Shown piece after piece: positions 6,001-26,122 of a DNA stretch of 64,000 nucleotides (positions within the stretch are counted from its first letter, which is position 1; every line of letters begins with the position of its first letter). Source of the stretch: a virus (taxonomy: Duplodnaviria > Heunggongvirae > Uroviricota > Caudoviricetes); the IMG/VR virus record IMGVR_UViG_2595698394_000001, positions 81,866 to 145,865 of that record, one strand, 5' to 3'. Made by a program: the position numbers and the translations under genes. The notes under the pieces are model-generated. The model ran no database searches and had not been told where the DNA came from. It was given only the letters and a program-made list of their open reading frames with translations.

Positions 6001-6005
6001 CAAAT

Positions 6006-6299: not shown

Positions 6300-6304
6300 A
6301 TTAT

Positions 6305-6531: not shown

Positions 6532-6546
6532 CAAAAATTAGAAAAT

Positions 6547-7073: not shown

Positions 7074-7078
7074 CAAAT

Positions 7079-7152
7079 AGCGAGGTAGAGCAGCTGGTTA
7101 GCTCGCTAGGCTCATAACCTAGAGGTCGGGAGTTCGAGTCTCCCCTTCGCCA
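7079..7152 (+). tRNA. tRNA-Met (CAT), elongator-like (or Ile2); 1:72 is A:C
   Basis: D-arm gagc/gctc, anticodon stem ctagg/cctag, loop ctcataa, T-arm gggagTTCGAGTctccc. Confidence 0.65.
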
Positions 7153-7231
7153 CAAAAGTCGCCCTATGTGTGAAAGCAGCATAGGTTAAGGAGCCTGTAC
7201 ACCTCCAGCAGTTAAGCGACAACTGCTTTAA

Positions 7232-7304
7232 AGTCTATCGGTCCAGTGGAGTGGACGCTGCCCTGTCACGGCAGAGATCACGGGTTCGAGTCCCGTATAG
7301 ACTG
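7232..7304 (+). tRNA. tRNA-Asp (GTC)
   Basis: Acceptor agtctat/atagact, D-arm gtcc/ggac, anticodon stem ctgcc/ggcag, loop ctgtcac, T-arm acgggTTCGAGTcccgt. Confidence 0.75.
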
Positions 7305-7383
7305 CTAAGAGTAAAGAAACGTGATTAAGATAGGATGCCAGCTATGCTGAAGCACTAATACGCTAAAACTTTACTCTTTTTAT

Positions 7384-7457
7384 TCCCTACGTAGCTCAAT
7401 TGGTGGAGCACTGGTTTTGTAAACCAAAGGTTGTCGGTTCGAGTCCGACCTAGGGAT
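7384..7457 (+). tRNA. tRNA-Thr (TGT)? One extra nucleotide at the acceptor/D junction
   Basis: Acceptor tccctac/ctaggga (6 of 7 pairs), anticodon loop tttgtaa, T-arm gtcggTTCGAGTccgac. Confidence 0.55.
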
Positions 7458-7604
7458 CAAAATACACCTCTCGTGAAGTTTTGAAGTGTATTATAAGGTG
7501 AATGCGAAAATACTTTGCTAGCTTTGGGTGGGACATCTACACATGCAACAAAGGACAACTGTTTAGACAACCAGGTATTTTCTGTAAAGCCCACCACCTT
7601 TTTT

Positions 7605-7678
7605 ACCAGATTAGCTCAGGGGTTTAGAGCAACTCTTTTACAAGGAGAAGGTCGATAGTTCGAATCTATCATTTGGTA
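7605..7678 (+). tRNA. tRNA-Val (TAC)
   Basis: Acceptor accagat/atttggt, D-arm gctc/gagc, anticodon loop tttacaa, T-arm gatagTTCGAATctatc. Confidence 0.65.
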
Positions 7679-7689
7679 CTTTATTTTAT

Positions 7690-7762
7690 GGGGGATTAGT
7701 TTAACTGGAAAAACTATAGGCTTCTATCCTATCGAGTAGGGGTTCGAATCCCTTATCCCCTT
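7690..7762 (+). tRNA. tRNA-Arg (TCT)
   Basis: Acceptor gggggat/atcccct, D-arm gttt/aaac, anticodon stem atagg/cctat, loop cttctat, T-arm aggggTTCGAATccctt. Confidence 0.7.
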
Positions 7763-7772
7763 CAATATTTAT

Positions 7773-7846
7773 GGCCTTGTAGCTCAGTTGGTTAGAGCAG
7801 CTCACTCATAATGAGAAGGTCTCAGGTTCGAGTCCTGACTAGGCCA
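7773..7846 (+). tRNA. tRNA with CAT anticodon (Met or lysidine-Ile2), second CAT tRNA
   Basis: Acceptor ggccttg/ctaggcc (one mismatch), D-arm gctc/gagc, anticodon loop ctcataa, T-arm tcaggTTCGAGTcctga. Confidence 0.65.
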
Positions 7847-8025
7847 CAGCATAAATAATAATTAATATATTTGGTAGTTCCATTTATATTTTGTAGTATT
7901 GCAGTATGAAAACAAATTATTGTACATATAACAATTCCAATTGGTCGTTTAGTTACGACACAGGATCGGTATGTACTCTAGGCAGTGATGGATTAATAGG
8001 TTAATTCATTTATAAAGTATATAAA

Positions 8026-8060
8026 GATCCTGTTACGAAAGTAACGGGATTTTTTATTTT
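8026..8060 (+). other. Leader hairpin + T-run 5' of tRNA-Tyr
   Basis: atcctgttac-gaaa-gtaacgggat + TTTTTTATTTT, ending 1 nt before tRNA 8061. Confidence 0.5.
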
Positions 8061-8144
8061 GGGACGGTTGCTCGGCTGGAAGAGGCGCAGGACTGTAAAT
8101 TCTGTAATCCACTAGGAATGGAGGTTCGAGTCCTCCTCGTCCCA
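8061..8144 (+). tRNA. tRNA-Tyr (GTA), type II
   Basis: Acceptor gggacgg/tcgtccc, anticodon stem cagga/ttctg, loop ctgtaaa, ~15-nt variable arm, T-arm ggaggTTCGAGTcctcc. Confidence 0.7.
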
Positions 8145-8243
8145 CGACTACTAAAACAGGTGTAGGTAAGAACTTAAGATAACTTACTTATATGCGGTAC
8201 TTATGTAAAAGAAAACTGTTGGTGTGCCGAGTTGTTTTATAAG

Positions 8244-8331
8244 GAAGGTGAATGAATCGTTGGGATGAGCCTGGTCTTGAAAACCAGTGGAGGTTTAAAA
8301 GCCTTGGGGATCGTGCCCTCCGTCTTCCGCA
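8244..8331 (+). tRNA. Degenerate tRNA-Ser(TGA)-like element, possibly a pseudogene
   Basis: Anticodon arm ctggt-cttgaaa-accag and acceptor gaaggtg/cgtcttc can be paired, but the D- and T-arms are non-canonical. Confidence 0.25.
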
Positions 8332-8414
8332 AGTGCATTATAAAGCACTATAAAGTGTAATGGGTAAGATTTTTCCCAAATATACATAAATTAGTGCCTT
8401 ATATTGCACATTAT

Positions 8415-8501
8415 AGAAAGGTGTCAGAGTGGCTTATTGAGCTAGGTTGCTAACTTAGTGGAGTGAAATACCTTCCGTGGGTTCGAATCCCATCCTTTCT
8501 T
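8415..8501 (+). tRNA. tRNA-Ser (GCT), type II
   Basis: Acceptor agaaagg/cctttct, 3-bp D-stem with a long D-loop, anticodon stem ctagg/cttag, loop ttgctaa, long variable arm, T-arm gtgggTTCGAATcccat. Confidence 0.7.
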
Positions 8502-8531
8502 CTACATATCGCATATCGCAATATGGAATAT

Positions 8532-8619
8532 TCTTGAGTTGCCGTAGTTGGCCGAACGGTCCAGACTGTTAATCTGGTGAGATTTATCTCCATCGTAGGT
8601 TCGAATCCTACCTCAAGAG
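8532..8619 (+). tRNA. Type-II (long variable arm) tRNA carrying anticodon GTT (Asn codon AAC); atypical
   Basis: Acceptor tcttgag/ctcaaga (perfect), anticodon stem ccaga/tctgg (perfect), loop ctgttaa, 17-nt variable arm with gagat/atctc stem, T-arm gtaggTTCGAATcctac. Confidence 0.5.
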
Positions 8620-8763
8620 CTTAGTATAAACTGTGGGTTTACTTGCAGAAGAACAGTCGAAAGTAGAGTGTCCAAAGCTCGTGTTCTTTACCTACCGAGG
8701 GGTTTTGCGTTCAGCGTAAAATTGACCCAAAAGGAATATCGGTTAGCAAGGATACTTTTATAT

Positions 8764-8836
8764 ACTTGAGTAGCTCAGTTGGTAGAGCAGTGGTCTCCAA
8801 AACCAAAGGTCGTAGGTTCGAGTCCTACCTCTCGTG
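8764..8836 (+). tRNA. tRNA-Trp (CCA) with two mismatches in the acceptor stem
   Basis: D-arm gctc/gagc, anticodon loop ctccaaa, T-arm gtaggTTCGAGTcctac; acceptor acttgag vs ctctcgt (pairs 3:70 and 4:69 mismatched). Confidence 0.5.
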
Positions 8837-8858
8837 CTAGTGTGTAACACTATACAAC

Positions 8859-8932
8859 GGGGTTGTAGCTGAGTTGGTACAAGCGTCCGATTGAAGCTCG
8901 GAAGTACGAAGGGTCGAAGCCTTCCTTCCCCA
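8859..8932 (+). tRNA. tRNA-Phe (GAA) with two acceptor mismatches and a G54 T-loop
   Basis: Anticodon stem tccga/tcgga, loop ttgaagc, T-arm gaaggGTCGAAGccttc; acceptor ggggttg vs cttcccc (5:68 and 6:67 are T:T). Confidence 0.5.
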
Positions 8933-8987
8933 CAACGTTGCTTATTAACCACTAAAGTTAATGTTTTGTTTATAATAAGCAACAAAT

Positions 8988-9061
8988 AGTGCTGTGCCTG
9001 AGTGGTCCAAAGGAGATGATTGCAAACCTGAAAATCGTCGGTTCGAATCCGACCAGCACCT
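8988..9061 (+). tRNA. tRNA-Cys(GCA)-like; the ttgcaaa loop is present but the anticodon stem pairs poorly
   Basis: T-arm gtcggTTCGAATccgac, acceptor agtgctg/cagcacc, loop ttgcaaa identical to the canonical Cys loop; only ~1 Watson-Crick pair in the stem. Confidence 0.4.
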
Positions 9062-9090
9062 CTAAATATTTACAATCTACGCACTTTTTA

Positions 9091-9122
9091 CTTGCATATG
9101 TCATTTATTTTTTTTACTTTTG
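9091..9122 (+). promoter_or_regulatory. Promoter-like element (cTTG-N20-TACTTTTG) within a 22-nt repeat ttgcatatgtcatttatttttt
   Basis: Repeat shared with 9731-9752; the -7 box matches TAnnTTTG. Confidence 0.4.
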
Positions 9123-10443: not shown

Positions 10444-12000
10444 TTGTCTATGACAAAAAATGTAACTATGGGGTTAACTCCTTTTCCAAGACAAGCTATA
10501 GCTATAAGTAAACAAGTCGCTTTTTTAGAAAGTGGTACTACCAAAAAGGGAATATTCGTGTATCCTGTTGCCTTTGGGAAATCTGTTGTTATTGCTAATG
10601 TAGCTCAAAAATTTCCTAACAAGTACTTTATAAACATTTGCCCTAATAAAGAACTTACTGATCAGAACTATAAAAAATTTATTTCTTATGGTTATGAGGC
10701 AGCAGTTTGTTGTGCTTCATTAAATAGAAATGAAATAGGTCAAGTTACTTTTGCAACCATTGGGACTTTAAAAAAACATTTAAATTTCTTTAAGGATAAG
10801 GAAGTAGTTATTTTAGTAGATGAGTGCCAGAACCATTCATTGAAAGGATCCTCCTTGCACACTTTTATCCAGTCAATAAAAAAAGTATTTGTTTTAGGTA
10901 CTACTGCAACTCCTCTAAGGTTAAAATCAGGAATGGGTGGAAGTGAGCTTAGAATGATGAACAGCTACAGAGATTGTTTCTACTCATCTATTGAAGATGT
11001 TGTGCAAATTAGTGAAGTAGTTGCAAATAAAAGGTGGTCGAAACTTATCTATGAGGTAGAGGATATAGATGAGTCATTTTTAAAACTTAATACTACTGGA
11101 ACTGAATATACTGTTTCCTCGTTAAAAGTTTTCTCAGAAAAAAACAATATTTTAGATAAAGCTAAAATTGCTGTAGAAAAACTTATAGCAGAAGGTAGAA
11201 AATCTATCCTAGTTTATATGCCTTTTATAGAAGATGCTGATGCACTAGGCGCAAGTATTGAAGGCTCTGTAGTTTTACACTCAAAAGTATCTGATAGAGT
11301 TAGATTCGATGCAATAGAAGGTTTTAAGTCAGGAAGAATAAAAGTACTGATAAATTGTTTAATTCTTGTTGAAGGGTTTGACTATCCAGAATTATCCTCT
11401 ATAGTAATGTGCAGACCTACTAACTCTATAAATCAGTACTACCAGGCATTAGGAAGGTTAACTAGAGTACATAAAAACAAAAATGACGGTAAGGTTATAG
11501 ATATCTCTGGTAACTTTAACAAGTTTGGTAAGATAGAGGATATTACTTTTGAGAATGAGGAGTGGTGTGGTGGATGGGCAGCTTTTTCTGGAGAAAGGTT
11601 ATTGACAAACTATCCTTTAAACAGTAAAATAGTTCCTACAAAACAGTCTTTAATAGAAGACTACGAAAGGAAGCTTAGAAAAGAGGATCCACTAGACCCT
11701 GTATTTAATTTTGGACAATACAAAGGTAAAAGTTTATTATCTCTGTTAAAAGATAAGACTTATGATTTCAAGTTTAAAATGACAGTAGGGGATAGGGTTG
11801 AAAGTTATATAAATTGGATAGTACAAGAAGATGCCAAAGGGAAATTCTCTTTTTATGGAGAATCAGGGGAAAAACTTAAAAGAGGTATTTACCAGCATTT
11901 AAAACTGCCAATGCCTAATAACAGTAAAAATGTTATAAGTACTACCATAGAAGAAAAACCTGTGACAAGAAATAGTTTAGGCTTCATTGTACCCTTTTAA
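10444..12000 (+). CDS. Superfamily-2 DEAD/DEAH-type helicase
   Basis: Walker A AFGKS, motif II VDECQN, motif III GTTATP, motif VI QALGRLTR. Confidence 0.7.
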   Translation: MSMTKNVTMGLTPFPRQAIAISKQVAFLESGTTKKGIFVYPVAFGKSVVIANVAQKFPNKYFINICPNKELTDQNYKKFISYGYEAAVCCASLNRNEIGQVTFATIGTLKKHLNFFKDKEVVILVDECQNHSLKGSSLHTFIQSIKKVFVLGTTATPLRLKSGMGGSELRMMNSYRDCFYSSIEDVVQISEVVANKRWSKLIYEVEDIDESFLKLNTTGTEYTVSSLKVFSEKNNILDKAKIAVEKLIAEGRKSILVYMPFIEDADALGASIEGSVVLHSKVSDRVRFDAIEGFKSGRIKVLINCLILVEGFDYPELSSIVMCRPTNSINQYYQALGRLTRVHKNKNDGKVIDISGNFNKFGKIEDITFENEEWCGGWAAFSGERLLTNYPLNSKIVPTKQSLIEDYERKLRKEDPLDPVFNFGQYKGKSLLSLLKDKTYDFKFKMTVGDRVESYINWIVQEDAKGKFSFYGESGEKLKRGIYQHLKLPMPNNSKNVISTTIEEKPVTRNSLGFIVPF

Positions 12001-12343
12001 AAATTTAGATATGAATAAAAGAGAAGTTAGAGAAGCAGTAGAGTACGTATTTCAACAAGAAAGTAAGAAGCCTGAAAGGAGGTTTATTAAATTAGTTTCT
12101 TACTGCAAAGGAAATGATGGGCCTAGAAATTATGGTACAAGTATGACTGGAGTATGCAATGACCCTGAGTGTAATAACTGCCGTAATTTTTCCAGGTTAA
12201 TGCAAGAAGAGCTTACCCTACAAATAGAGGAACTAGAATCCATAACAGCTACTAAGTACTTGACAGAAGAGGAAATAATAGACAAATATGGGTTAACAAA
12301 AGAGGATATAGAAAAACTTAAAAGTAAATACAATGATATATAA
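11987..12343 (+). CDS. Hypothetical protein (118 aa) with CNDPECNNC motif
   Basis: ORF track; overlaps the helicase stop. Confidence 0.5.
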   Translation: MYPFKNLDMNKREVREAVEYVFQQESKKPERRFIKLVSYCKGNDGPRNYGTSMTGVCNDPECNNCRNFSRLMQEELTLQIEELESITATKYLTEEEIIDKYGLTKEDIEKLKSKYNDI

Positions 12344-12542
12344 TTACCATCCAATACTAGGACTACAATATAGTTGTATGGAAATACCTATTGTTTCAAT
12401 AGATCTTGGAGCCTTACCTGTTTTAAGCAAGGAGGATTTAAATAAGTTTTTAACTGAATGGAGAGAAATTGAGAAATTAAGTATTTCATCAACAAGTGTT
12501 GTTACTGAAACTATCTATAGTCCTATAATATCAAATTTTTAA
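12333..12542 (+). CDS. Hypothetical protein (69 aa)
   Basis: ORF track. Confidence 0.4.
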   Translation: MIYNYHPILGLQYSCMEIPIVSIDLGALPVLSKEDLNKFLTEWREIEKLSISSTSVVTETIYSPIISNF

Positions 12543-12544
12543 TT

Positions 12545-12766
12545 ATGGAACAAAGAAATAATTATTTAGTCTGGGGGCATTATTATAAAAGGGAAATAAC
12601 AAGCTTAGAATACTATTGTGATGTTGTAGGAGAGTACTGGTATGAGGATGAGAATACTTCCAATTGGGTATATATCTTAGAAAGGCTTTGGGATAAGACA
12701 GAGGAGGAAGTTAAAGCTTTCTGTAATAAATATAAAACTGAAACTATATGGTACGAAATTATTTAA
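12545..12766 (+). CDS. Hypothetical Trp/Tyr-rich protein (73 aa)
   Basis: ORF track. Confidence 0.45.
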   Translation: MEQRNNYLVWGHYYKREITSLEYYCDVVGEYWYEDENTSNWVYILERLWDKTEEEVKAFCNKYKTETIWYEII

Positions 12767-13254
12767 CACTGATAATAGCATTAGTAAGTATAGTAGTATC
12801 CTCTCAGGATATTTTGTATAAAGTCATAGAAAATGACAGTACTTACATTTTTGCAGTAAGTAAGCCTCTAGTCCCTATTGTAGATGACTTTTTTACTCAC
12901 GCAAAGAAAAACAACTACTCAATTTCTAAAGTAGCTGACTTACACGGAGTCTACAAAACAAATGTGATTTCTCATTACACAGGTTCACAAGATGCTGGAT
13001 TAACTATGATAAGCAGAGATTTTAAAGATATAATATTTATAAATGATAATCTACCCACCTATTTACCCACCCTTATAGAGGTGGTAGTTTATCATGAGTT
13101 TTATCACTTCTTTGCTAATAACAAGGATCACTGTGACACTATATTTTGCCCTTATATTTTACAAAGTGGAGATAAAATAGATGTTGAGTATGTAATAAGA
13201 ACATGGGGAGAAGATGATAAAAAAGAGTACTTTGAATATTTAAAGATAAACTAG
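12748..13254 (+). CDS. Secreted or membrane-anchored protein with an HExxH motif, possibly a small zinc metallopeptidase
   Basis: N-terminal hydrophobic segment LTLIIALVSIVVSS; VVYHEFYHF contains HEFYH. Confidence 0.45.
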   Translation: MVRNYLTLIIALVSIVVSSQDILYKVIENDSTYIFAVSKPLVPIVDDFFTHAKKNNYSISKVADLHGVYKTNVISHYTGSQDAGLTMISRDFKDIIFINDNLPTYLPTLIEVVVYHEFYHFFANNKDHCDTIFCPYILQSGDKIDVEYVIRTWGEDDKKEYFEYLKIN

Positions 13255-13742
13255 TGAAACATTATAAATACTTCAGCGAAGAAATAACCGAAGAATCTGT
13301 CCAGGAATTAATAGATTCTTTATGTAGGAATAACACAGAGGTGTTATACTTTGCTACTAATGGAGGGGATACTAATTCTATGGAAGTACTAGTCTCTTTT
13401 TTGTCAGACAATGAAATAAAAGTTATTTTAACAGATAGAATAGCTAGTTGTGGTGTGGACCTACTGACAGAGTACGGAGGCTCGTTATCTATCTCTAGGA
13501 ATTTAGAGTATATACTATTTCATTTATGTGACAGAAGTTTCTCTACTACCCTTAAGGAGACTGTTTCTTCTAAAGTATTAAAAAAGGACTTAGATGATTA
13601 TAATAAAGAGCTCTTAAAAAGATATAAAACTTTAGGCCTAAGCAGTAAGCAGCTAAAGAAGATAAGCGAAGGCAAAGATGTTATTGTTTATAGAAAAGAT
13701 TTTAATAAGTTAAACCTAGAAGATGTTTCCGAAGAAAATTGA
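13254..13742 (+). CDS. ClpP-fold serine-protease-like protein (162 aa)
   Basis: ATNGGDTNSMEVLVSFL...DRIASCGVDLL resembles ClpP SPGG...GQAASMGAFLL. Confidence 0.4.
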   Translation: MKHYKYFSEEITEESVQELIDSLCRNNTEVLYFATNGGDTNSMEVLVSFLSDNEIKVILTDRIASCGVDLLTEYGGSLSISRNLEYILFHLCDRSFSTTLKETVSSKVLKKDLDDYNKELLKRYKTLGLSSKQLKKISEGKDVIVYRKDFNKLNLEDVSEEN

Positions 13743-14178
13743 TTTTAATACAGACGACTTCTCTAAACTTAAGATGTCCTCTTTAAAAAGAATGGCAGAC
13801 TACTGGTTAAGACAGTACTTACTTTCAAAAGCAAAAAGAAAAGGCTTATCTAAGAGAATATATTGCCCTATAAAAAATAGTTGGTATCCAGAAAATAAAA
13901 TTCATGTAGCTCACTATGTAGACAGAGCGTGTATGAACCTTAGGTACGATCTAAGGAACGTTAAACTTATTTCCGAACAAAGTAACATGTGGGATTCAAA
14001 AGTCCCTCACGAGGGCTATAAAAGCAAACATCATTTTGAATACTCGCAAATTTTATCTAAAAAAGACAAAGAGTACTTGGAAAGTAACAATGTTATTAAT
14101 ATATTTGCCAGACAAGACTATGTTACCTTGATAGTCAAGTTTAGAAATAAGGTAGCGTTAAAAAATAAAAATTCATAA
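13723..14178 (+). CDS. Putative HNH-like nuclease (151 aa)
   Basis: CP...HVAHYVDRA...N...N arrangement; weak. Confidence 0.35.
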   Translation: MFPKKIDFNTDDFSKLKMSSLKRMADYWLRQYLLSKAKRKGLSKRIYCPIKNSWYPENKIHVAHYVDRACMNLRYDLRNVKLISEQSNMWDSKVPHEGYKSKHHFEYSQILSKKDKEYLESNNVINIFARQDYVTLIVKFRNKVALKNKNS

Positions 14179-14179
14179 T

Positions 14180-14590
14180 ATGGAAAAAAAAGAGCATCCT
14201 TTCACCAGACTATCTAACTTGATTGCTGACTATGAAGCTAATAAAGAAAGCTTTGACTTAGACAAGCTAATTACTATGCGAGAAGACATAAGTATAACTA
14301 CTTTTAATATGTCCGATAGTGCTAGTGAAGCTTTAAGCAGGTATGATTTAGCAGAGCATGTAAGAAAAATGAAAATGGCTGAAAGAGAACAATACCATAG
14401 AGCTGGTACAGGATCTAACGGAAAGCCTATGACAGTTGCTGAGGCAGAGAATTTATCTAGGATAGAGTGCAAACAAGAAGTAGAGGATTGTAAAGAAAGT
14501 TTAAGAAAGAAAAAAAGAGTAGAAATAATCTTAAAAAGTACAGAGCAAATATTACATGCAATAAGCTCTAGAATAAAAATGATAGAATAA
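14180..14590 (+). CDS. Hypothetical protein (136 aa)
   Basis: ORF track. Confidence 0.5.
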   Translation: MEKKEHPFTRLSNLIADYEANKESFDLDKLITMREDISITTFNMSDSASEALSRYDLAEHVRKMKMAEREQYHRAGTGSNGKPMTVAEAENLSRIECKQEVEDCKESLRKKKRVEIILKSTEQILHAISSRIKMIE

Positions 14591-14591
14591 T

Positions 14592-15587
14592 ATGGCTAAG
14601 AAAAAAAATGAAATTGATAATGCCTCTTCTGCTTTAGATAAACTGTACAGCAAGTATAGTAAAACAGAGAACGTTTACAAGGCTCCAGATAAACTAGAAG
14701 ATATAGATCCTTCAGTATCTAGAATGAAATCCCCTTTCTTATCTTTTGATAGATATCTAGGAGGAGGACCTGCATATGGTAAGATCACAACTTACTCTGC
14801 TTTTGCAAGCATGGGTAAAACGTCTTTAGCTTTAGCACATGCAGGAGAAAACCCTGATAAAATAGTAGGTTTTGTCGATGCAGAGTTTAACTGGGATGAT
14901 GCTTCTTATTTATGGGTAGATAAGTATTTTGGCATAGAGAAAGAAAGAATACATATCTTACATCCTACTTATTTAGAAGAAGGGGCAGAAATGATAGAGG
15001 ATTTATGTGATGCCTGTGATATAGTAATATATGATGGATTTGACTCTATAGCTCCTAAAGGAGAGTATGAAGGCAGTATGGAAGACAACTCTATGGGGCT
15101 TCAAGCTAGGGCATACAAAAAGTTCTTTAGACGTAGTATGGGTAAAATATACAAAAGCAAAGCAGCTTTAATAATTACAAATCACCTTTATGAAAATATA
15201 GGGAATGTCTATGAACCTTTTAAGGAACCAGGAGGAAAGGCTATTGCTGATTATGCATCTCAAAAATTATTCTTAACTAGAGGCAACTTAAAGGATTCAG
15301 AAAAAAATATTACTGGACAAACTGTTAGAGTCAATGTAAATAAAGATAAACTTACTGGTAGCAGGGGTATAAAATTTGAGATACCTTATGATAACAAGAC
15401 AGGATTCGATGTAGTAGGAGACATCATAAACAATGCTATTGACCTAGGAGTTATTAAGCAAGCAGGATCTTGGTTTTCTTATGATGAAACCAAGCTAGGG
15501 CAAGGAGGAAATGCTGTAAGAGGACTGTTGGAAGATAATGTGGAGCTTCTTGAGGAAATAGTTTTAAAATGTAAATCTTTATTTTAA
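14592..15587 (+). CDS. RecA-superfamily recombinase (UvsX/Sak4/RadA-like)
   Basis: Walker A SAFASMGKTSLAL, Walker B-like IVIYDGFDS; typical RecA length and layout. Confidence 0.65.
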   Translation: MAKKKNEIDNASSALDKLYSKYSKTENVYKAPDKLEDIDPSVSRMKSPFLSFDRYLGGGPAYGKITTYSAFASMGKTSLALAHAGENPDKIVGFVDAEFNWDDASYLWVDKYFGIEKERIHILHPTYLEEGAEMIEDLCDACDIVIYDGFDSIAPKGEYEGSMEDNSMGLQARAYKKFFRRSMGKIYKSKAALIITNHLYENIGNVYEPFKEPGGKAIADYASQKLFLTRGNLKDSEKNITGQTVRVNVNKDKLTGSRGIKFEIPYDNKTGFDVVGDIINNAIDLGVIKQAGSWFSYDETKLGQGGNAVRGLLEDNVELLEEIVLKCKSLF

Positions 15588-15758
15588 CATGAGTTTTTTA
15601 GCCTTAATAGTATTACTTTATTTTGGATATAATTGGGCTTCAACCGCTTTAAAAATAGAAGAAGGAGAGCTTAAGGATAACAAAAAAACAAAATTTCTAG
15701 GGTTCCTGTTTATGGTTCCCTATGAAATTTTTATAAAAATAAAAAAATATATAAGTAA

Positions 15759-16211
15759 ATGGTAAATTGGTATCACCAAGGAATAGAAATTTTAGATGTT
15801 TCCCAAATACCAGAAGGAGTTATTGGGTTTGTTTATAGAATTGACAATTTAAATAATGGTAAAATTTATATTGGTCGAAAAGCTATACAATCTAAGCGAA
15901 AAAGAAAATTTGGGAAAAGAGAGATTGCAGCTATGCCTAATAAAAGGCTTAAAAAATGGGAACTGGTAATATCAGAAATGAAAGGCTGGAAATCCTATAC
16001 TGGAAGTTCAGAAGAGCTAAATAAGGACATAGCTAAAGGAGATAAGATCCACAAACAAATACTAGTTTATTGTACAAGTAAAAAAGAATTAGCTTACTGG
16101 GAATCGAAATATTTATTTTGTGAAGGTACAATAGAATCAGAAAATTATTATAACGGTAACATAATGGGAAAATTCTTCCCAAAAGATTTAAAAAAAGATG
16201 GCGAAGATTGA
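15759..16211 (+). CDS. GIY-YIG family endonuclease (homing-endonuclease-like)
   Basis: GFVYRIDNLNNGKIYIGRKA matches the I-TevI motif GIYQIKNTLNNKVYVGSAK; conserved downstream KRKFGKRE and ELAYWESKY. Confidence 0.65.
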   Translation: MVNWYHQGIEILDVSQIPEGVIGFVYRIDNLNNGKIYIGRKAIQSKRKRKFGKREIAAMPNKRLKKWELVISEMKGWKSYTGSSEELNKDIAKGDKIHKQILVYCTSKKELAYWESKYLFCEGTIESENYYNGNIMGKFFPKDLKKDGED

Positions 16212-17235
16212 TCACACATTTAGAGACTTATGCTCTAAAATACAACTAGAAGGCAGAGAGTACGAAAATAAAAACAGAGGGGTAAAAAGATTGCAAATAC
16301 CTAGTTATACATTAAAGCATTCTTTTGAAGACGGCTTTCCTGCAATAACAAATAAAGGGTTATTTTGGAAAGGTATTACTGGAGAGTTGATATGGTTCCT
16401 TAGAGGAGATAATGATATCGAGTATTTAAAACTCAATAAGATCGATATTTGGGACAAAGATGCATACAACTGGTACGCAAAACACCACTCTGGATTAAAA
16501 GAAGACTCAGATGAGCCATTTAGAATGTTAACATTTGAAGAATTTCAGTTGGAGGGAAAAGGGTCTGTAGGTAAAAACTACTCTGTGCAGTGGAGGGACT
16601 TCCAAGGAGTAGACCAAATCCTTAGATTAGTGACTGATATGAAAAAAGACATCATGTCCTCAAGGTTAAAAGTAAATGCCTGGAATCCTGCTGAAATATT
16701 TGAAACTGCTTTACCTCCTTGTCATTCAGAATTTCAAGTTATTGGAGTACCTTTAACAACAGATGAAAGATTTAAAATAGCAAACTTATCAGAAGAAGAA
16801 ATTGCCTATGTCGTAGATAATGACTTAGTTATGGAAGCTTTAGAAGATGTTCCTGAATTTGGGTTTGAGTTACACTGGAATCAAAGATCAGTTGATACAT
16901 TTTTAGGGTTACCGTTTAATATTGCTTCTTACGGATTACTAGCAAAAATGCTGGAGATGTTAACTGGTTACAAAGCTTTAGGAATAGAAGGCACATTGAA
17001 GTGTGTACATTTCTATGATAATCAGTATGAAGCTGTGAATCAGTTATTAGAAAGAGATCCTGATACTCATGCTAACTGTGAATTAGTTATTAGTGACTAT
17101 GTAAAAAGTTTAGACCCTTTTAAATTAGAATTAGATGAATTTTTAATGAGTATTGCTATACCAGATTTTACCTTAAAAGGGTATACTTCAGATAAAAGAA
17201 TACCTGTAAAAATGTTAGCACCTAAAAGTATTTAA
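16198..17235 (+). CDS. thyA: Thymidylate synthase (ThyA type)
   Basis: ALPPCH active-site motif and the conserved block VQWRDF within the TS-like N-terminus. Confidence 0.8.
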   Translation: MAKIDHTFRDLCSKIQLEGREYENKNRGVKRLQIPSYTLKHSFEDGFPAITNKGLFWKGITGELIWFLRGDNDIEYLKLNKIDIWDKDAYNWYAKHHSGLKEDSDEPFRMLTFEEFQLEGKGSVGKNYSVQWRDFQGVDQILRLVTDMKKDIMSSRLKVNAWNPAEIFETALPPCHSEFQVIGVPLTTDERFKIANLSEEEIAYVVDNDLVMEALEDVPEFGFELHWNQRSVDTFLGLPFNIASYGLLAKMLEMLTGYKALGIEGTLKCVHFYDNQYEAVNQLLERDPDTHANCELVISDYVKSLDPFKLELDEFLMSIAIPDFTLKGYTSDKRIPVKMLAPKSI

Positions 17236-17299
17236 AATAAAAGAGAAAATCCTTGCATATTAAATATTAAAGAATTAAATTTGTAATGAACAAAAGCAT

Positions 17300-17704
17300 A
17301 TGTATATAAAAGCAACTAAAATAGATAGGGAGTTAAATGAACAGGCCCAACTAAAGTACAAAGAATTTATTGGCCAAACCCTAAACCCTATAGAAAGGGG
17401 GCAAATTGCAGATGAAGAAGGCAGGACCAGTAAGTGGTATGAGGACTTAAATATTCCAGTTCCAGAAGAACTTAAGCCTAAAAATTCTAAGCCTTTACCT
17501 TCAAGTATATCTTTTGATGCTGTAGCTGATTACGATATAAAAAGGGTCCAAGTACAAATTAACTTAAATGAGGTCGAAGAGTTTGAAAGGGTAATAGGGG
17601 AAGAAGGTATTGAAGATTATACAGTAGTAATATACAAAAGTGGAAGAGAAATAACAATTGACGAGGAAGTGAATAGTCATGACCTCAATTCTAAATTAAA
17701 TTAA
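17300..17704 (+). CDS. Hypothetical protein (134 aa)
   Basis: ORF track. Confidence 0.5.
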   Translation: MYIKATKIDRELNEQAQLKYKEFIGQTLNPIERGQIADEEGRTSKWYEDLNIPVPEELKPKNSKPLPSSISFDAVADYDIKRVQVQINLNEVEEFERVIGEEGIEDYTVVIYKSGREITIDEEVNSHDLNSKLN

Positions 17705-17711
17705 ATAAAAG

Positions 17712-18482
17712 ATGGCAGCAAATAATGGGTCAACAGGACCAAACCAAAACTTCTATAACATAGCTTATGGAATGTTTAAATCAAAGTTTAAAAATAAACC
17801 AGAGGACAAAGAGGAAATATCCTTAACAGAGCTTAAGAGAAAAACATTAGCAGTAGAAAATGTAGATCTTAGAAAACTTTATGTAAAAGGAGAAGGTGAT
17901 TATCCTTATGCAGAGTTTTTCAGTTCTATATCAGGTAAAATTCTTAGTGTAGAAAAAGACGTTTACGATCAAGGAATATCTCTTAAAATAACCATTTTAG
18001 ACTTAGATAACGAGCAGAGTGTTCTTACAACAAGTTTCTATGGTAAGGTAGCTTCTAACTTAATGAATAGATTAGTAGCCTTAGAGTCAACTACAGACAT
18101 AGTAACTTTTAATCCTTATGCGGTTCCTGATAATTACGAAGGTAGAGCTTTTTACCAGTCTGGTGTAGTTTTATACCAAAATGATAAGAAGGTTCTAACT
18201 AAGTTTAAGCAGACAGATGGTTTGCCTAGTTCTGAGAGAGTTCAAGATGCTCAAGGTAAAGAAGTAACTTCTAGAGTTAAACAAAATAACTTTCTTTGGT
18301 TACATTTAGAGCCTATGTTTGCAAAAGAAGAAGCTAAGTTTAATGCACCTCCTGCACAGACTAACACAGCTCCTGCACAGACTAACACAGCTCCTGCACA
18401 GACTAACACAGCTCCTGCACAGACTAACACAGCTCCTGCACAGACTAACACAGCTGAAGAAGACGACGACTTACCTTTTTAA
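17712..18482 (+). CDS. SSB-like protein: N-terminal domain, (APAQTNT)x5 linker, acidic tip EEDDDLPF
   Basis: C-terminal DDDLPF mirrors the bacterial SSB tip DDDIPF; repetitive linker precedes it. Confidence 0.5.
   Translation: MAANNGSTGPNQNFYNIAYGMFKSKFKNKPEDKEEISLTELKRKTLAVENVDLRKLYVKGEGDYPYAEFFSSISGKILSVEKDVYDQGISLKITILDLDNEQSVLTTSFYGKVASNLMNRLVALESTTDIVTFNPYAVPDNYEGRAFYQSGVVLYQNDKKVLTKFKQTDGLPSSERVQDAQGKEVTSRVKQNNFLWLHLEPMFAKEEAKFNAPPAQTNTAPAQTNTAPAQTNTAPAQTNTAPAQTNTAEEDDDLPF
18351..18455 (+). repeat. Five perfect tandem copies of a 21-nt unit cctgcacagactaacacagct (in-frame, inside 17712..18482)
   Basis: Direct reading; unit boundaries at 18351/18372/18393/18414/18435. Confidence 0.9.
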
Positions 18483-18531
18483 ACAAATTACTAATATGCC
18501 CCTCTAACTATGAGGGGCTTAATTCCAAAAA

Positions 18532-19107
18532 ATGAAAGTAGTAGAAGACAAAGAAAATAAAGAAGAGAAAAAAGATTACACTAAGTACACTTTTGAAGAT
18601 AACACTGCTTTATCTATAGATACTAGTTTATATGCACACCTTTTACAAGGAATGCAAAAGCTAGTAGAGGAGTATGAGTACCAACATGATAAATATAAAG
18701 TAGTATCTAATTTACTTTTTGCTTATTTACAGAAAGAAAAAGTAGATGAGAACAACGTATCTTTAAAGTATAGCATTTTTGAATATTGTAATGATACTTT
18801 GAAAGGTTTGTTCGACAAAGAGTTGATTACGCTAGTACCTTTGAAATTCGATATCGTAAATACAGATACAGATAAAGTAGTAGCTAAAAAAGTAAAAGGT
18901 AAGAACTATAAGGATGTATTTAGTGTAGCTAAAACAGCTAGTTCCGAAAATCTTTCAAGCCAATATTTATCAGCTAATGGTCAAGTTATTCTAAGAATGT
19001 TAGATGCTTTACAAGGTGTATATATAGCTAACGTGGATTTAGGTAACGGTATAACCTTAGAAGACTTAGCTGCTAAAACAAAAGAGACGAAAGATGGAAA
19101 CAACTAA
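18532..19107 (+). CDS. Hypothetical protein (191 aa)
   Basis: ORF track. Confidence 0.5.
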   Translation: MKVVEDKENKEEKKDYTKYTFEDNTALSIDTSLYAHLLQGMQKLVEEYEYQHDKYKVVSNLLFAYLQKEKVDENNVSLKYSIFEYCNDTLKGLFDKELITLVPLKFDIVNTDTDKVVAKKVKGKNYKDVFSVAKTASSENLSSQYLSANGQVILRMLDALQGVYIANVDLGNGITLEDLAAKTKETKDGNN

Positions 19108-19450
19108 ACAGGATTTTGTACAGGAAGCTTTAGAAGAAGAATTTCTTTCTCAAACACCTTTAATCGAAAAAAAAGAGGAACCTCTTGTTATACAAACTAA
19201 CTTTGAAAAAAGCCTAGAGCTTTTTAAAAAGATACAGTTTCATAAGTCAGGTCTTAAATTAATCAAGGACAGGCTAGGTAATAAATGTAGTTACCTATCC
19301 TGGACAAGAAATGGTAATGATTATGGGATTAAGGCTATAATCAGTGGGAAAGAAATAGAAGTTGTTTTAGGAGGTACTCCTGATGATGTTGGATACGAAG
19401 AGTATGAAAGTCTTTTCGAAAAATTAAATGTGTATGGCAAAGAAAATTAG
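19094..19450 (+). CDS. Hypothetical protein (118 aa)
   Basis: ORF track. Confidence 0.5.
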   Translation: METTKQDFVQEALEEEFLSQTPLIEKKEEPLVIQTNFEKSLELFKKIQFHKSGLKLIKDRLGNKCSYLSWTRNGNDYGIKAIISGKEIEVVLGGTPDDVGYEEYESLFEKLNVYGKEN

Positions 19451-19628
19451 TAGAGAGGCTAGAGAAATGTATTTAATCTTTTTAGATGCAGGTATATTTG
19501 AAGATGAGAACTGTGATTACAAAGGTATGGTAGGAGACTACGATAAAGATATAGATTCTTTTGCATCACAGTGGGGAAAAATAAATAAGAAGATAAAGGA
19601 TATTAACATTAAATCAGAGGAAGTTTGA
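19428..19628 (+). CDS. Hypothetical protein (66 aa)
   Basis: ORF track. Confidence 0.4.
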   Translation: MCMAKKISREAREMYLIFLDAGIFEDENCDYKGMVGDYDKDIDSFASQWGKINKKIKDINIKSEEV

Positions 19629-19945
19629 GAATAAAGTCACTAGATATGATTTGGGTCAAAACCCGAACAAAGAAACAAACAGATACAGGGATTATTTTAG
19701 GAGCAGGGCAATCTTGGAGTAGCAGATTAAAAGGTAATTTTTTTGAAGCTGAAGTGATTATAATTGGGTCCTCGATCCCTAAAGAGCTTTTAGGGGATAA
19801 AGATGGAACTTTAGAAGTAGGAGATACTATTTTTATACAAAAATGGAGTGACGAGATAGAGTGGCAAAGAGCTATTGTGGTAGACAACGAAGAGTTTCTG
19901 CTTCTAAGTACTCACGATATTCTTGGATTTGAAAAGAAAAAGTAA
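19625..19945 (+). CDS. GroES / T4 gp31-like co-chaperonin
   Basis: IKSLDMIWVK...TDTGIIL...LEVGDTIFI...EEFLLLSTHDILGFE aligns with GroES IRPLHDRVIVK...SAGGIVL...VKVGDIVIF...EEVLIMSESDILAIVE. Confidence 0.65.
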   Translation: MRIKSLDMIWVKTRTKKQTDTGIILGAGQSWSSRLKGNFFEAEVIIIGSSIPKELLGDKDGTLEVGDTIFIQKWSDEIEWQRAIVVDNEEFLLLSTHDILGFEKKK

Positions 19946-19947
19946 TA

Positions 19948-20163
19948 ATGGCAAAAAAGAATAGTCCTATACCTAGTAGAGATTCTGAGGTAATGTTACT
20001 CTTAGACACATTTCTTAAAGATAAGTGTCAAACTATAGATAAAGACTATAGCCCTGATAAGGTTACTGCCATAACGTTTGAAGGGAGTGACCTAGTACAA
20101 AATTTTTTCTTAAACGGGAAGGATTATATAATGACAATTGACTGGAGATTAGTTCAGGAATAA
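19948..20163 (+). CDS. Hypothetical protein (71 aa)
   Basis: ORF track. Confidence 0.45.
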   Translation: MAKKNSPIPSRDSEVMLLLDTFLKDKCQTIDKDYSPDKVTAITFEGSDLVQNFFLNGKDYIMTIDWRLVQE

Positions 20164-21661: not shown

Positions 21662-22005
21662 TAAACACAAGTTGTATAGAGTCAGCATATTTGACTAGGG
21701 AAAAGTCTACAGAGTATTTGTTTATGCCTGAGGTTAAGAAAAAATCTTTTTTTAGCAGAAAAGAGAAAATACTATACAAAGCAGGGTACTGGGAATATGG
21801 AGAGTATAGGGATGGCCTCTTTAATTTTTATGAAACTATTCCTGATGAGTATACAGAAAAAAATGGTAGGCTAATAGCTAAAGCTAAAGTAGAAGGATAT
21901 ACAGGAAAACACTTAATATTTAGAAAACGATTTTCCTCTAATAGAGAAGCAGAACTTTTCTGTAGTACTCATTTATCTAATTTAAATCTAACATTCGAAA
22001 ACTAA
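21646..22005 (+). CDS. Hypothetical protein (119 aa)
   Basis: ORF track. Confidence 0.5.
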   Translation: MGKVLVNTSCIESAYLTREKSTEYLFMPEVKKKSFFSRKEKILYKAGYWEYGEYRDGLFNFYETIPDEYTEKNGRLIAKAKVEGYTGKHLIFRKRFSSNREAELFCSTHLSNLNLTFEN

Positions 22006-22009
22006 TAAT

Positions 22010-22393
22010 ATGAATCAAAACGATACACCTTACCATGAACTGTTTTTATCAATTAAAGGAGCAGACGATTATTGGCCAGTAGAGGAAAGAGAGGAAGTTC
22101 TATCTCTAGTTAAAAAATTGCACGATAGAGAGCAAGATAGGTTAGCAGAAGAAGATGAGGAAGGAAAATATGGTCTTAGGTACAAGACTATACATGATGA
22201 CTCTAGATTTTCTGATACTCATGAACAATTCTTCTCCAGTAAGAGTAAGAGGGAGAAAGTCTTCTTAGATTGGAAGAAAGGTGTTACTTGGGATAGCATT
22301 TTTGAGACTGAACTAGAGTACCCTACTCCAGGAGGCAATTTTCACGGGATGGTGAAAATATTTAAAGAGGGAACTAAAACATATGAAGAATGA
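22010..22393 (+). CDS. Hypothetical protein (127 aa)
   Basis: ORF track. Confidence 0.5.
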   Translation: MNQNDTPYHELFLSIKGADDYWPVEEREEVLSLVKKLHDREQDRLAEEDEEGKYGLRYKTIHDDSRFSDTHEQFFSSKSKREKVFLDWKKGVTWDSIFETELEYPTPGGNFHGMVKIFKEGTKTYEE

Positions 22394-22647
22394 GTAAATA
22401 TAAGAAAAAGCTTAAGGCCTTCTTAGAGGGGCTTGAGATGCAAGATATAGATAGTTTATTAGAGAAAGATGCAAGTGCTTTTAAATTCTTAGGAGAAGTG
22501 ATGGCCGTTAGGGTAAAAATCAAACAGGAGAGTTTTGACAAAGTATATAGTGTAGGTATTGATCCTATAACTGAAGGTACTAGTTTTGGTACCTGTAACT
22601 GTGGAATCACATGTGTAAATAAAAGTAATTGTAGATGGAGGAGTTAA
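22390..22647 (+). CDS. Hypothetical protein (85 aa)
   Basis: ORF track. Confidence 0.45.
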   Translation: MSKYKKKLKAFLEGLEMQDIDSLLEKDASAFKFLGEVMAVRVKIKQESFDKVYSVGIDPITEGTSFGTCNCGITCVNKSNCRWRS

Positions 22648-23072
22648 AAGAACTAATAGCAAAAGCGTGGGCAGAGTTAATAGGGGATGTATATATTTTG
22701 TACAGACATTCAATAGACTCAGAGGGATGGTTAGAAGTAAATGAAAGTGATTATCGCTTTCAATATAATACTTCTATAGCTGGTAGGTGGAGTGGTAAAG
22801 GGTACAATCCACTAGCAAAAGGGAAAAGGACTCAAAACAAACTGTATGTCAGGCCTAAAAGTATAGATAAAATAATGCTTAATAATGGATGGACAGTTTT
22901 AAATAGTAGAGATGACCTCCCAACTGAAGAAGGGAGTTTTTACACAGTAGTAGACACTGAGGGAAGAATAGTAGAATATCACTACAAAGAAACTGAGCAG
23001 CTAAAAAAATATTGGCTTGAAAATTTTACCCATTATAAGAAAGTAGTCCCTCTTAAGCCTCCTTTATGGTAA
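22635..23072 (+). CDS. Hypothetical protein (145 aa)
   Basis: ORF track. Confidence 0.5.
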   Translation: MEELKELIAKAWAELIGDVYILYRHSIDSEGWLEVNESDYRFQYNTSIAGRWSGKGYNPLAKGKRTQNKLYVRPKSIDKIMLNNGWTVLNSRDDLPTEEGSFYTVVDTEGRIVEYHYKETEQLKKYWLENFTHYKKVVPLKPPLW

Positions 23073-23251
23073 GGTTAAACAAAAATATATTATATAACTA
23101 GTAATTAAATTTAACATAAGAAAATAATTTAATATGATATATTGGAATATTAAAACTCCAAAACGACTATTTGCTAGTTGTATATGGAATTTAAGTGAAT
23201 ACTTTGAATTTGGACTTGGAAGATATGGTCCTATTGTTTTTGGATGGATGA

Positions 23252-23674
23252 TTGGATCTAATGGAAATAAAAAATAAAATAATGAAAACACTCCTAACCA
23301 TATTAACCATTTTAATGCTATTATCCTGTGGAAAGCACGAAACACAATACGAAGAACTAAACATGTCTTTTACAGTTCCTACGTTCTTAGATAAGTGTGG
23401 GGAGCCTGTAGAAGCGATATTAGTAATTAACGGTGTATTGCATCAATCAAAATTAAATGCGATCTCAGGAGGTTGGAAAATGGATGGCATACTAGTGGAA
23501 GATGGAAAAAGCACAATTACAAAACTAGTATTAATAGACAAACAGGGAACAGAACTATACACCGCTGTAGGATATATGGATAGATACCGATTTGATTTGA
23601 TTAACGATAGCAATCCAATGAGGGTATCAAGATATACTAAGATAGGTGTTGGAGTGGCTGTAATTTGTTTATGA
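23252..23674 (+). CDS. Putative lipoprotein (140 aa)
   Basis: Signal peptide + lipobox LLSCG. Confidence 0.5.
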   Translation: MDLMEIKNKIMKTLLTILTILMLLSCGKHETQYEELNMSFTVPTFLDKCGEPVEAILVINGVLHQSKLNAISGGWKMDGILVEDGKSTITKLVLIDKQGTELYTAVGYMDRYRFDLINDSNPMRVSRYTKIGVGVAVICL

Positions 23675-23687
23675 AAATTTAATTAAA

Positions 23688-23978
23688 ATGACAATAGAAG
23701 AACTGATAGCAAGCAAAACAAAAACGATGACTGATTTGGGTGGAAAGAAAACAAAAGTTCTCTACCTTAAAGATGAAAGTGAAATAGAAGACTTTAAAAA
23801 TCAATTACTTATGTATAGTGTTAGCGACACGTTTAAGGATTTTTACAAGCCTACGTTTGAGCAATTTATTAAAGGCAGCAAACTGACCCAAGGTGTTGAT
23901 GGAAAGTATTTTTATGAAGATAGCCTTTACACTTACGCTCAATTGTTTTGTAAATACAAAAAATTATTCGACTTATAA
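23688..23978 (+). CDS. Hypothetical protein (96 aa)
   Basis: ORF track. Confidence 0.5.
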   Translation: MTIEELIASKTKTMTDLGGKKTKVLYLKDESEIEDFKNQLLMYSVSDTFKDFYKPTFEQFIKGSKLTQGVDGKYFYEDSLYTYAQLFCKYKKLFDL

Positions 23979-24246
23979 ACTTAAATTATGACAACAACAT
24001 TATTTTGGATAGGACTGATATTAGTGGTAATAGTATGCAGTAAACTTAAACTCGTAAAGTCTCCAGACTATAGAGATAAAGTAGAGGAAGATGATTGGCT
24101 GGTATAAAAAAGCCTTCCCTAAATAAACAGAGAAGGCTCAAAACTAACTAACCAAAATGAATAGCCAACGCTCAAAGATAAATATAAACAAGCGATTTAT
24201 GAAAATAATTTCGTAAATTTGATAAAATAATTAAAAATTAAGTAAG

Positions 24247-25330: not shown

Positions 25331-26122
25331 ATGAAATATTTTTTAGACACAGAATTTATAGAAGGAACCCAAAAGAAAAAAATACTTGGAATACCTTACG
25401 GAGAAACACAAAATACTATAGACTTGATCTCTATTGGAATTGTATCTGAAGACAAAAGAGAGTATTACGCTATATCAAAAGACTTCAACATTAAAGAAGC
25501 CTGGAATAGATATCAAATAAAGGAAGTCCGTGGTAGTGATTATTGGGATGAGGTAAAAGAATATTGGATAAGAGAAAATGTTCTTAAGCCAATATTTGAT
25601 GAAATGGAATTTTGGTACCGTAGGGATTTTCAATGGAGACTAAAAGAAGAAGGGGAGTACATCTATTCTAAAAAAGCTAAGTTCACTCTCAATCAATTTA
25701 AATACCTATTATCTGTATATGGAAAGACCAATAAGGAGATAGCTAAGGAAGTAATAGACTTTTGTAGTGGATTTGAAGGGGATTTTAATCAAGTAATGGA
25801 TGATAACATACAATTTTACGCATATTACTGTTCTTACGACTGGGTAGTATTTTGCTGGTTATTTGGAAAGATGATTGACTTACCAAAAGGATTTCCAAAG
25901 TACTGTAACGATCTTAAAGTTATGTTAAATGATATAGCGGCCAGAAGAGATTTACAATTAGCAGTTAATGACAGTATCCCATTAAAAGGGATAGATCAAT
26001 TAGAATTACACCCTGATTACCCTAAAAAAGAAGGAGAACACAATGCACTACAGGATGCTTGGTGGGACTTCAGATTATATAACTTTATAAACAAAGTAAG
26101 TAAACAAGATGACAAAATTTAG
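25331..26122 (+). CDS. DEDDh (DnaQ-like) 3'-5' exonuclease
   Basis: Exo I FLDTEF, C-terminal Exo III HNALQDAW. Confidence 0.6.
   Translation: MKYFLDTEFIEGTQKKKILGIPYGETQNTIDLISIGIVSEDKREYYAISKDFNIKEAWNRYQIKEVRGSDYWDEVKEYWIRENVLKPIFDEMEFWYRRDFQWRLKEEGEYIYSKKAKFTLNQFKYLLSVYGKTNKEIAKEVIDFCSGFEGDFNQVMDDNIQFYAYYCSYDWVVFCWLFGKMIDLPKGFPKYCNDLKVMLNDIAARRDLQLAVNDSIPLKGIDQLELHPDYPKKEGEHNALQDAWWDFRLYNFINKVSKQDDKI

Follow-up and report, generated by a model that had tools for sequence, protein, structure and literature searches.

A GIY-YIG nuclease gene between recA and thyA in Cellulophaga phage phi4:1 and its family of short, single-copy phage proteins

In a 64,000-nucleotide stretch of an IMG/VR virus record (IMGVR_UViG_2595698394_000001, positions 81,866 to 145,865; hereafter the window), a small open reading frame (ORF), gp089, lies between a recA-like gene and the thymidylate synthase gene thyA. 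The deposited annotation calls its 150-amino-acid (aa) product 'NAD synthetase', and a first-pass annotation made from the sequence alone read it as a GIY-YIG endonuclease fused to thyA and homing to this locus, in the manner of I-TevI and the T4 td gene. What does gp089 encode, and is it mobile? We found that it is a GIY-YIG nuclease and very probably a conserved, non-mobile enzyme of phage DNA metabolism rather than a td-targeting homing enzyme. Over window bases 14000–18500, the sequence is that of Cellulophaga phage phi4:1 (KC821632/NC_021788, 145,865 bp, Lightbulbvirus) with 100% identity, and phi17:2 matches it at 99.2%. Coordinates below are window positions, obtained by subtracting 81865 from the record coordinate.

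A single-domain nuclease under an inherited label

The gp089 gene runs on the + strand from 15759 (ATG) to 16211 (TGA). Its product matched the Pfam family PF19835 (SegE_GIY-YIG) with E = 1.3e-29 and 103.3 bits (curated gathering cut-off of 25), with the alignment spanning residues 4–135 and the whole of the profile (positions 1–123 of 123); the generic model PF01541 gave E = 0.021. The AF2 model was confident, had the GIY-YIG alpha/beta fold and found its best solved-structure match in the catalytic domain of I-TevI. In PHROGs, gp089 belongs to phrog_447 (labelled 'NAD synthetase') and had weaker matches to homing-endonuclease phrogs. A sequence search of the PDB gave no match below E = 0.7, and neither NCBIfam (E <= 1) nor PADLOC returned a match.

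The catalytic residues of this domain are intact. Across an alignment of 16 relatives, G23, Y26, Y37, G39, K41, R47, K62, K65, W77, Y80, S83, E115 and N132 were invariant, a set that covers both motif tyrosines plus the Arg, Glu and Asn that a working GIY-YIG nuclease should have. The GIY...YIG beta-hairpin (15825..15884, + strand, residues 23–42, GFVYRIDNLNNGKIYIGRKA), modelled as strands 23–30 and 36–42, carries the motifs in the forms FVY (Y26) and YIG (Y37). R47 lies 10 residues past the YIG tyrosine, the same spacing as in I-TevI, where its counterpart would be R27. The C-terminal catalytic segment (16101..16154, + strand) holds the invariant E115 (16101–16103) and N132 (16152–16154). Judged by motif order and spacing, the gp089 catalytic residues probably correspond to Y6, Y17, R27, E75 and N90 of I-TevI, with E115 and N132 matching E75 and N90.

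Directly after the motif hairpin comes a Lys/Arg-rich, family-specific insertion (15885..15986, + strand, residues 43–76) that contains the invariant R47, K62 and K65. The model folds it into an additional beta-hairpin (strands 44–50 and 67–73); it is missing from T4 SegE in an hhalign alignment and presumably forms a DNA-binding surface. Another beta-hairpin is modelled at the N terminus (strands 4–6 and 9–11). Only 15 residues remain after the nuclease domain, and no NUMOD, zinc-finger or helix-turn-helix match was found by Pfam. The analysis thus confirms gp089 as a GIY-YIG nuclease with a single domain of ~150 aa, and bears out the first-pass view of a free-standing gene that encodes the catalytic domain alone.

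The name 'NAD synthetase' was given to gp089 by similarity to cyanophage P-SSM2 YP_214449, from which it spread to many phage genomes in GenBank and RefSeq and to phrog_447; several hundred phage records carry the gene, and most of those listed in our searches bear this label. On its strength, the gene has been listed as an auxiliary metabolic gene under photosynthetic electron transport in at least one study (PMC7238727), although the label is unsupported. The propagated database entry is the one thing in favour of an NAD synthetase with an auxiliary metabolic role, whose probability we consider close to nil: gp089 matched no NAD-synthetase family in Pfam (E <= 1) or NCBIfam (E <= 1), and its fold and motifs are those of GIY-YIG proteins. 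We therefore rejected this identity. At 150 aa, the protein is also too small for a NadE-type enzyme.

Family, genomic context and mobility

A family profile built from 16 sequences and run against 1.84 billion cluster representatives retrieved 3,246 proteins at E <= 1e-3, including 1,932 at E <= 1e-10. The best 150 of the 3,246 representatives were all 119–185 aa long and matched end to end, and a separate DNA-binding domain was found in none of these 150. A word-indexed search returned 17 relatives (126–161 aa), each with PF19835 as its sole domain. In a viral structure library, the top three matches were short 'SegE-like GIY-YIG domain' proteins (131–159 aa), and most of the remaining ones were longer Seg-like homing enzymes (~170–360 aa). 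We also searched IMG/VR with an 8-sequence alignment and examined 80 loci, representing 33 clusters at 80% identity; every locus had one nuclease copy, whose ORF was 153 aa at the median and no longer than 171 aa. On these sequences, the family forms a very large clade of its own, made up of short proteins with a catalytic domain akin to that of Seg enzymes and without their C-terminal DNA-binding domain.

Within this clade, gp089 is an ordinary addition to a known but uncharacterised family, PF19835. It belongs together with short 'SegE-like GIY-YIG domain' proteins such as Prochlorococcus phage P-SSM2 PSSM2_218 (T4-GC 213) and Felixounavirus Alf5 ORF106, sharing their length (~130–165 aa), N-terminal extension, basic insertion and invariant catalytic residues. 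These short members are single-copy genes of large lytic myoviruses, mostly labelled 'NAD synthetase', and differ in their neighbours: thyA for gp089, nrdB/talC for cyanophage members and exonuclease/MazG/ribonucleotide reductase (RNR) for Felix O1-like members.

T4 SegE is homologous to the family over its residues 3–86 (hhalign probability 86%, E = 4.9e-6), with shared YIGK and Y-x-GS motifs, and like gp089 it is a free-standing gene amid phage DNA-metabolism genes. SegE is 205 aa long, has a C-terminal region after its nuclease domain and matches PF19835 weakly (36 bits), whereas gp089 lacks the C-terminal part and instead has 22 additional N-terminal residues and a basic insertion of ~27 aa. 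Seg genes in T4 are sporadic and multi-copy. I-TevI differs further: it resides within the group I intron of T4 td, and it matches the generic GIY-YIG model together with PF22635, PF20987 and PF07460 (zinc finger, NUMOD3 and helix-turn-helix modules), none of which is matched by gp089. Another GIY-YIG protein compared, PD-T4-3 (PDB 9u75; 18% identity), is a 248-aa bacterial restriction enzyme specific for 5-hydroxymethylcytosine and acts in defence, unlike the phage-encoded gp089 with its lack of a PADLOC match.

The gene is widespread and consistently single-copy. With gp089 as the tblastn query, we found 460 phage records and 460 places, with hosts or names given as Synechococcus (n = 339), 'Cyanophage' (n = 45), Prochlorococcus (n = 22), Stenotrophomonas (n = 16), Sinorhizobium (n = 7), Flavobacterium (n = 4), Methylophilales (n = 4) and others. 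The P-SSM2 homologue as query yielded 761 records and again as many places (761), adding Felix O1-like phages of Escherichia, Salmonella, Shigella and Erwinia. Almost the same search patterns, applied to both collections, confirmed 85 IMG/VR loci compared with a single locus in 185,579 species genomes, located on a 136-kb contig of a Flavobacteriaceae metagenome-assembled genome that may itself be a phage genome. The gp089 subfamily is essentially viral.

Among cyanophages, prevalence was measured against records with a T4 portal protein (382 'Synechococcus' and 62 'Cyanophage'), sorted by the first word of the organism name, which makes the counts approximate: the nuclease was present in 339 'Synechococcus' records against the 382 (~89%) and in 45–46 'Cyanophage' records against the 62 (~73%). 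Two cyanophages from separate genera, Syn33 and S-RIM8, hold it in an identical position (nrdB ... talC – two small ORFs – nuclease – small ORF – tRNA-Arg). Cyanophage members were 60–74% identical among themselves and 31–38% identical to gp089. An apparent case of presence and absence comes from the supplement of Sullivan et al. 2010 (PMC3037559), in which T4-GC 213 ('NAD Synthetase') is found in most of 16 cyanomyoviruses and scored as unique to P-HM1 relative to P-HM2. We rejected this polymorphism, as Prochlorococcus phage P-HM2 carries an intact ORF in the same place (L027:2597-3082; NC_015284, ~161271–161756) with 92.5% identity to its P-HM1 orthologue, PHM1_182. The false entry arose because the P-HM2 orthologue was left unannotated; the small ORFs PHM2_182 and PHM2_183 are annotated at the site instead. 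The ratio of nonsynonymous to synonymous substitution rates (dN/dS) between the two orthologues was 0.10–0.14, and the nuclease is under purifying selection.

In the closest metagenomic relative (L005), the nuclease is 66% identical to gp089 and the block is syntenic with phi4:1 (helicase – gp085 – gp086 – RecA – x – nuclease – x – gp091..gp095 – Cpn10), with thyA swapped for a 122-aa dGTP-diphosphohydrolase-like gene and gp088 for a 169-aa ORF. A second relative with a nuclease 55% identical to gp089 (L008) has the order RecA – RNase H – nuclease – unknown – Cpn60. Elsewhere we found rIIA–rIIB–nuclease (L009 and L013), RecA ... nuclease – PhoH (L016), tail spike – nuclease with thyA 73 kb off (Flavobacterium phage immuto) and exodeoxyribonuclease – nuclease – x – MazG ... 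RNR (Felix O1-like Alf5). We scanned the 122 ORFs lying within two positions of the nuclease in the 33 dereplicated IMG/VR clusters against Pfam. Recurrent families were DUF2201 metallopeptidase/VWA (n = 7) and RecA, Toprim/AAA_25 primase-helicase, DnaG primase and sulfotransferase (n = 6 each), with single cases of RNase H, exonucleases, PhoH, dGTP diphosphohydrolase and SbcCD-like proteins. Over all contexts, the neighbours serve replication, recombination and nucleotide metabolism, among them RecA, primase/helicase, RNase H, exonucleases, PhoH, MazG/dGTP-diphosphohydrolase, RNR, ThyX and dNMP kinase. Thymidylate synthase accounted for 0 of the 122 ORFs. Adjacency to thyA is peculiar to phi4:1 and phi17:2, and thyA is a neighbour rather than a conserved partner.

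RecA was a more frequent companion: 9 of the 33 clusters had it no more than 3 kb from the nuclease, and in 5 the two genes adjoined (gap of -7 to +12 nt); RecA is also linked to the nuclease in L005, L008 and L016. For 72 of 91 pairs among 14 RecA-linked loci, the nuclease was better conserved than RecA was (Spearman correlation of the identities, 0.44). Between L005 and phi4:1, the nuclease was the most conserved gene of its block, with 66% identity compared to 25–48% for the syntenic neighbours. This pattern agrees with slow evolution and largely vertical inheritance of the gene. At one further locus (L057:1387-3429), a RecA-like ORF of 680 aa, about twice the usual length, lies 1.5 kb upstream of a family member; it could represent an intein, a fusion or read-through.

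Could gp089 nevertheless be a homing or otherwise mobile endonuclease aimed at the conserved recA–thyA locus, with DNA recognition supplied by the basic hairpin insertion? Its catalytic domain is most like those of Seg and I-TevI enzymes, it adjoins highly conserved genes as homing genes often do, flanking gene content differs among relatives, and one relative (L014) sits in a cluster of other genes resembling those for homing endonucleases. The similarity between gp089 and the L005 nuclease also far exceeds that of the flanking genes, which recent transfer could equally yield. We nonetheless consider homing improbable. The best 150 representatives have no DNA-binding domain of the kind that site-specific GIY-YIG homing enzymes need, and the nuclease is single-copy in every positive record. 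In cyanomyoviruses it is syntenic, highly prevalent and constrained (dN/dS ~0.1). Its supposed target thyA is no conserved neighbour, and its composition is unremarkable (GC content of 30.2%, versus 32.1% for the whole window).

We likewise found no ORF-less allele: both Lightbulbvirus genomes carry the gene, no recA–thyA junction free of it was found (L005 and L008 keep the nuclease and change its flanks), and the one reported polymorphism, P-HM1/P-HM2, is an annotation artefact. Three loci found through RecA (L023–L025, 33–36% identity) have no nuclease within 6 kb and are too diverged to define an empty site. The first-pass annotation had held that universal presence with no presence/absence polymorphism would speak against homing, and the failure to find an ORF-less allele of the locus largely points that way. 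Between phi4:1 and phi17:2, the nuclease differs by 1 synonymous base and thyA by 20, and a tract of 857 nt free of single-nucleotide polymorphisms (SNPs) covers the RecA 3' end, gp088 and the nuclease. We examined this tract as a possible signature of co-conversion and rejected it: in 500-nt bins across 30 kb, the two phages show 0 to 69 differences, with many bins at 0–1, and a SNP-free tract gives no homing signal because divergence is patchy everywhere, which indicates mosaic exchange. In that comparison (L110; window 1–30000), patches of high divergence fell at ~1500–3000, 18000–18500 (a repeat), 22000–24000 and 26000–27000, and several segments were unalignable.

gp089 therefore lacks the hallmarks of homing endonucleases that we examined, namely a DNA-binding domain, a sporadic distribution and an intron location, and the data do not support the mobile endonuclease homing to this locus that was first proposed. 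Homing would hold only if the basic insertion conferred an unexpected specificity, which we judge to be improbable to the same degree.

The phi4:1 locus and its thyA gene

Upstream of the nuclease, gp087 (14592..15587, + strand) encodes a RecA/UvsX-like recombinase (Pfam PF00154 and PF21096), and gp088 (15589..15765, + strand) is a 58-aa hydrophobic ORF (phrog_32237) in a variable slot, occupied in relatives by a 169-aa ORF or RNase H. Downstream lies gp090 (16198..17235, + strand), the intron-less, T4 td-like thyA (PF00303, E = 1.7e-61). This order, gp087–gp088–gp089–gp090, agrees with the first-pass placement of the nuclease between the recA-like gene and thyA. The end of gp088 overlaps the start of gp089 by 7 nt, and the last 14 nt of gp089 also form the start of thyA, in a different frame; the overlap with thyA noted earlier is thus real, but it is of the type common in dense phage operons and involves no fusion. 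gp089 is one of a string of overlapping genes, read in the same direction, that serve replication, recombination and nucleotide metabolism; the 7-nt and 14-nt overlaps make its co-translation with the adjacent genes probable. A scan of 12000–20000 for sigma-70 promoters and terminators gave counts not above those in shuffled sequence, with Bacteroidota promoters lying outside the coverage of the scan.

The thyA gene is one unbroken ORF of 345 codons that matches PF00303 over positions 2–264 of 266. Rfam returned no match in 13000–19000 (E <= 1), and hence no intron or riboswitch. The I-TevI/td-like association suggested in the first-pass annotation does not apply here: thyA has no intron, the nuclease lies upstream of the gene rather than inside it, and thyA is missing from the neighbour census. 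The best PDB match of phi4:1 ThyA is T4 thymidylate synthase (td; 1tis, E = 2.7e-36), relative to which it has an insertion of ~42 residues (residues 181–222, window 16738–16863) between the PPCH active-site segment and the QRSVD motif, as well as further extra residues near 88–110. We considered an intein for the 42-residue insertion, which is too short to be one. In Flavobacterium phage immuto, thyA has 95% identity to a 63-nt stretch of the phi4:1 gene (16876–16938); that phage shares no other megablast-level similarity with the 4.5-kb query. This stretch codes for HWNQRSVDTFLGLPFNIASYG, the most conserved ThyA motif, which contains the insertion position of the T4 td intron according to the alignment to T4 td.

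Other features of the region are noted here in their own right. The product of gp085 (13723–14178) has a weak PHROGs match to the NinG/Rap junction-specific endonuclease (E = 0.004) and could be a phage junction resolvase, which would bear on the need for gp089 in that role. A dense array of ~20 tRNA genes, including pseudo-tRNAs, lies upstream of the helicase–RecA block at ~5900–9100 (record 87785–90926); the set differs slightly in phi17:2, where a tRNA-Asn is annotated about where phi4:1 has a pseudo-tRNA. Inside gp092 (17712–18482), a perfect 21-nt tandem repeat (18349–18455, 5.1 copies, unit CTCCTGCACAGACTAACACAG) codes for the reiterated 7-residue unit APAQTNT; exact copies number 5 in phi4:1 and 3 in phi17:2, a length polymorphism of 42 nt.

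Possible role in phage DNA metabolism

What might a conserved nuclease without a sequence-reading domain do? The reading we favour, to which we give even chances, is that gp089 is a fixed, vertically inherited, stand-alone DNA endonuclease of low specificity that derives from Seg enzymes and serves the phage DNA-metabolism module. It would descend from the catalytic domain of a Seg-type homing endonuclease, without the DNA-binding domain. Its active site (Y26, Y37, R47, E115 and N132) would nick or cut DNA with one divalent metal, and the N-terminal beta-hairpin and the Lys/Arg-rich inserted hairpin would contact the substrate. Low cleavage specificity would be expected because no sequence-reading domain is present. 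Acting early in infection, gp089 would make DNA breaks from which phage exonucleases release nucleotides to feed ThyA, RNR and MazG-type enzymes, and which RecA would use for recombination-dependent replication. We infer the substrate, the low specificity and the biological role from the sequence, the model and the gene context.

More tentatively, gp089 may be a functional analogue, by comparison with T4, of endonuclease II (DenA), making the first breaks in host DNA without being its homologue. Both are small single-domain GIY-YIG nucleases (136 aa for DenA and 150 aa for gp089) in which extra N-terminal residues precede the GIY motif, neither has a separate DNA-binding domain, and both lie amid nucleotide-metabolism genes (in T4, td-nrdA-nrdB-denA). 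The sequences are unrelated by BLASTP (E = 39); hhalign against the family gave a probability of 1.1%, confined to the motif region, and DenA does not match PF19835. A tblastn search with DenA (E <= 1e-3) gave 1,303 records, whose ten commonest organism names were all enterobacterial or Aeromonas T4-like phages. The gp089 family, by contrast, occurs in T4-like phages of cyanobacteria, Stenotrophomonas, Sinorhizobium and Methylophilales, so that the two distributions are complementary. A wider and more doubtful proposal is that the family, with about 3,200 clusters at 50% identity, is a homing catalytic domain domesticated into a housekeeping enzyme, supplying the missing starter of host-chromosome breakdown, of the breaks for RecA/UvsX replication, or of both, in T4-like cyanophages and many other marine myoviruses, none of them with a detectable denA. 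As part of this proposal, and with no greater likelihood for the two together, it would be a functional and roughly positional stand-in for T4 endonuclease II, downstream of nrdB.

Other roles have to be set beside these. The repeated direct adjacency to RecA would suit a structure-specific nuclease of recombination or repair that works with phage RecA/UvsX and cuts branched or D-loop DNA, as Slx1 or UvrC do, instead of degrading host DNA; this is the main rival, a minority possibility on a par with domestication. Roles like that of endonuclease II and roles coupled to RecA need not be mutually exclusive, and T7 endonuclease I serves both host-DNA breakdown and recombination. A role as a weapon against competitors or host systems, whether shutting out co-infecting phages or satellites or breaking down the DNA of host defences or plasmids, seems to us quite improbable, slightly more so even than homing. 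Such genes are usually lineage-specific and fast-evolving, whereas the gp089 family is broad and slow-evolving; the nuclease also lies outside the variable islands of cyanophages, and PADLOC gave no match.

Several observations weigh against a fixed, vertically inherited enzyme of low specificity. No characterised member of the family, and no biochemical or genetic data on one, was found in the literature searched, and the phage's own DNA would need protection from such a nuclease. About 11–26% of cyanomyovirus records have no detectable copy. Flanking genes vary between relatives, a pattern also known around mobile nucleases, and nuclease and RecA distances are only moderately correlated, with phi4:1 versus L005 a discordant pair (65% versus 29%); such pairs leave some room for exchange. 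At L014 (L014:5547-7880), a 138-aa family member is directly followed by a second, generic GIY-YIG ORF (157 aa, PF01541), with a homing-type HNH-NUMOD4 gene two genes upstream, the only context seen that resembles a cluster of mobile nucleases.

For phage biology, a large, single-copy and strongly constrained family that has no DNA-binding domain and often exceeds the adjacent RecA in conservation must matter in phage DNA metabolism. The family is a candidate for host-DNA breakdown or the initiation of recombination, and may show how phages made a core function out of a nuclease domain that was once selfish.

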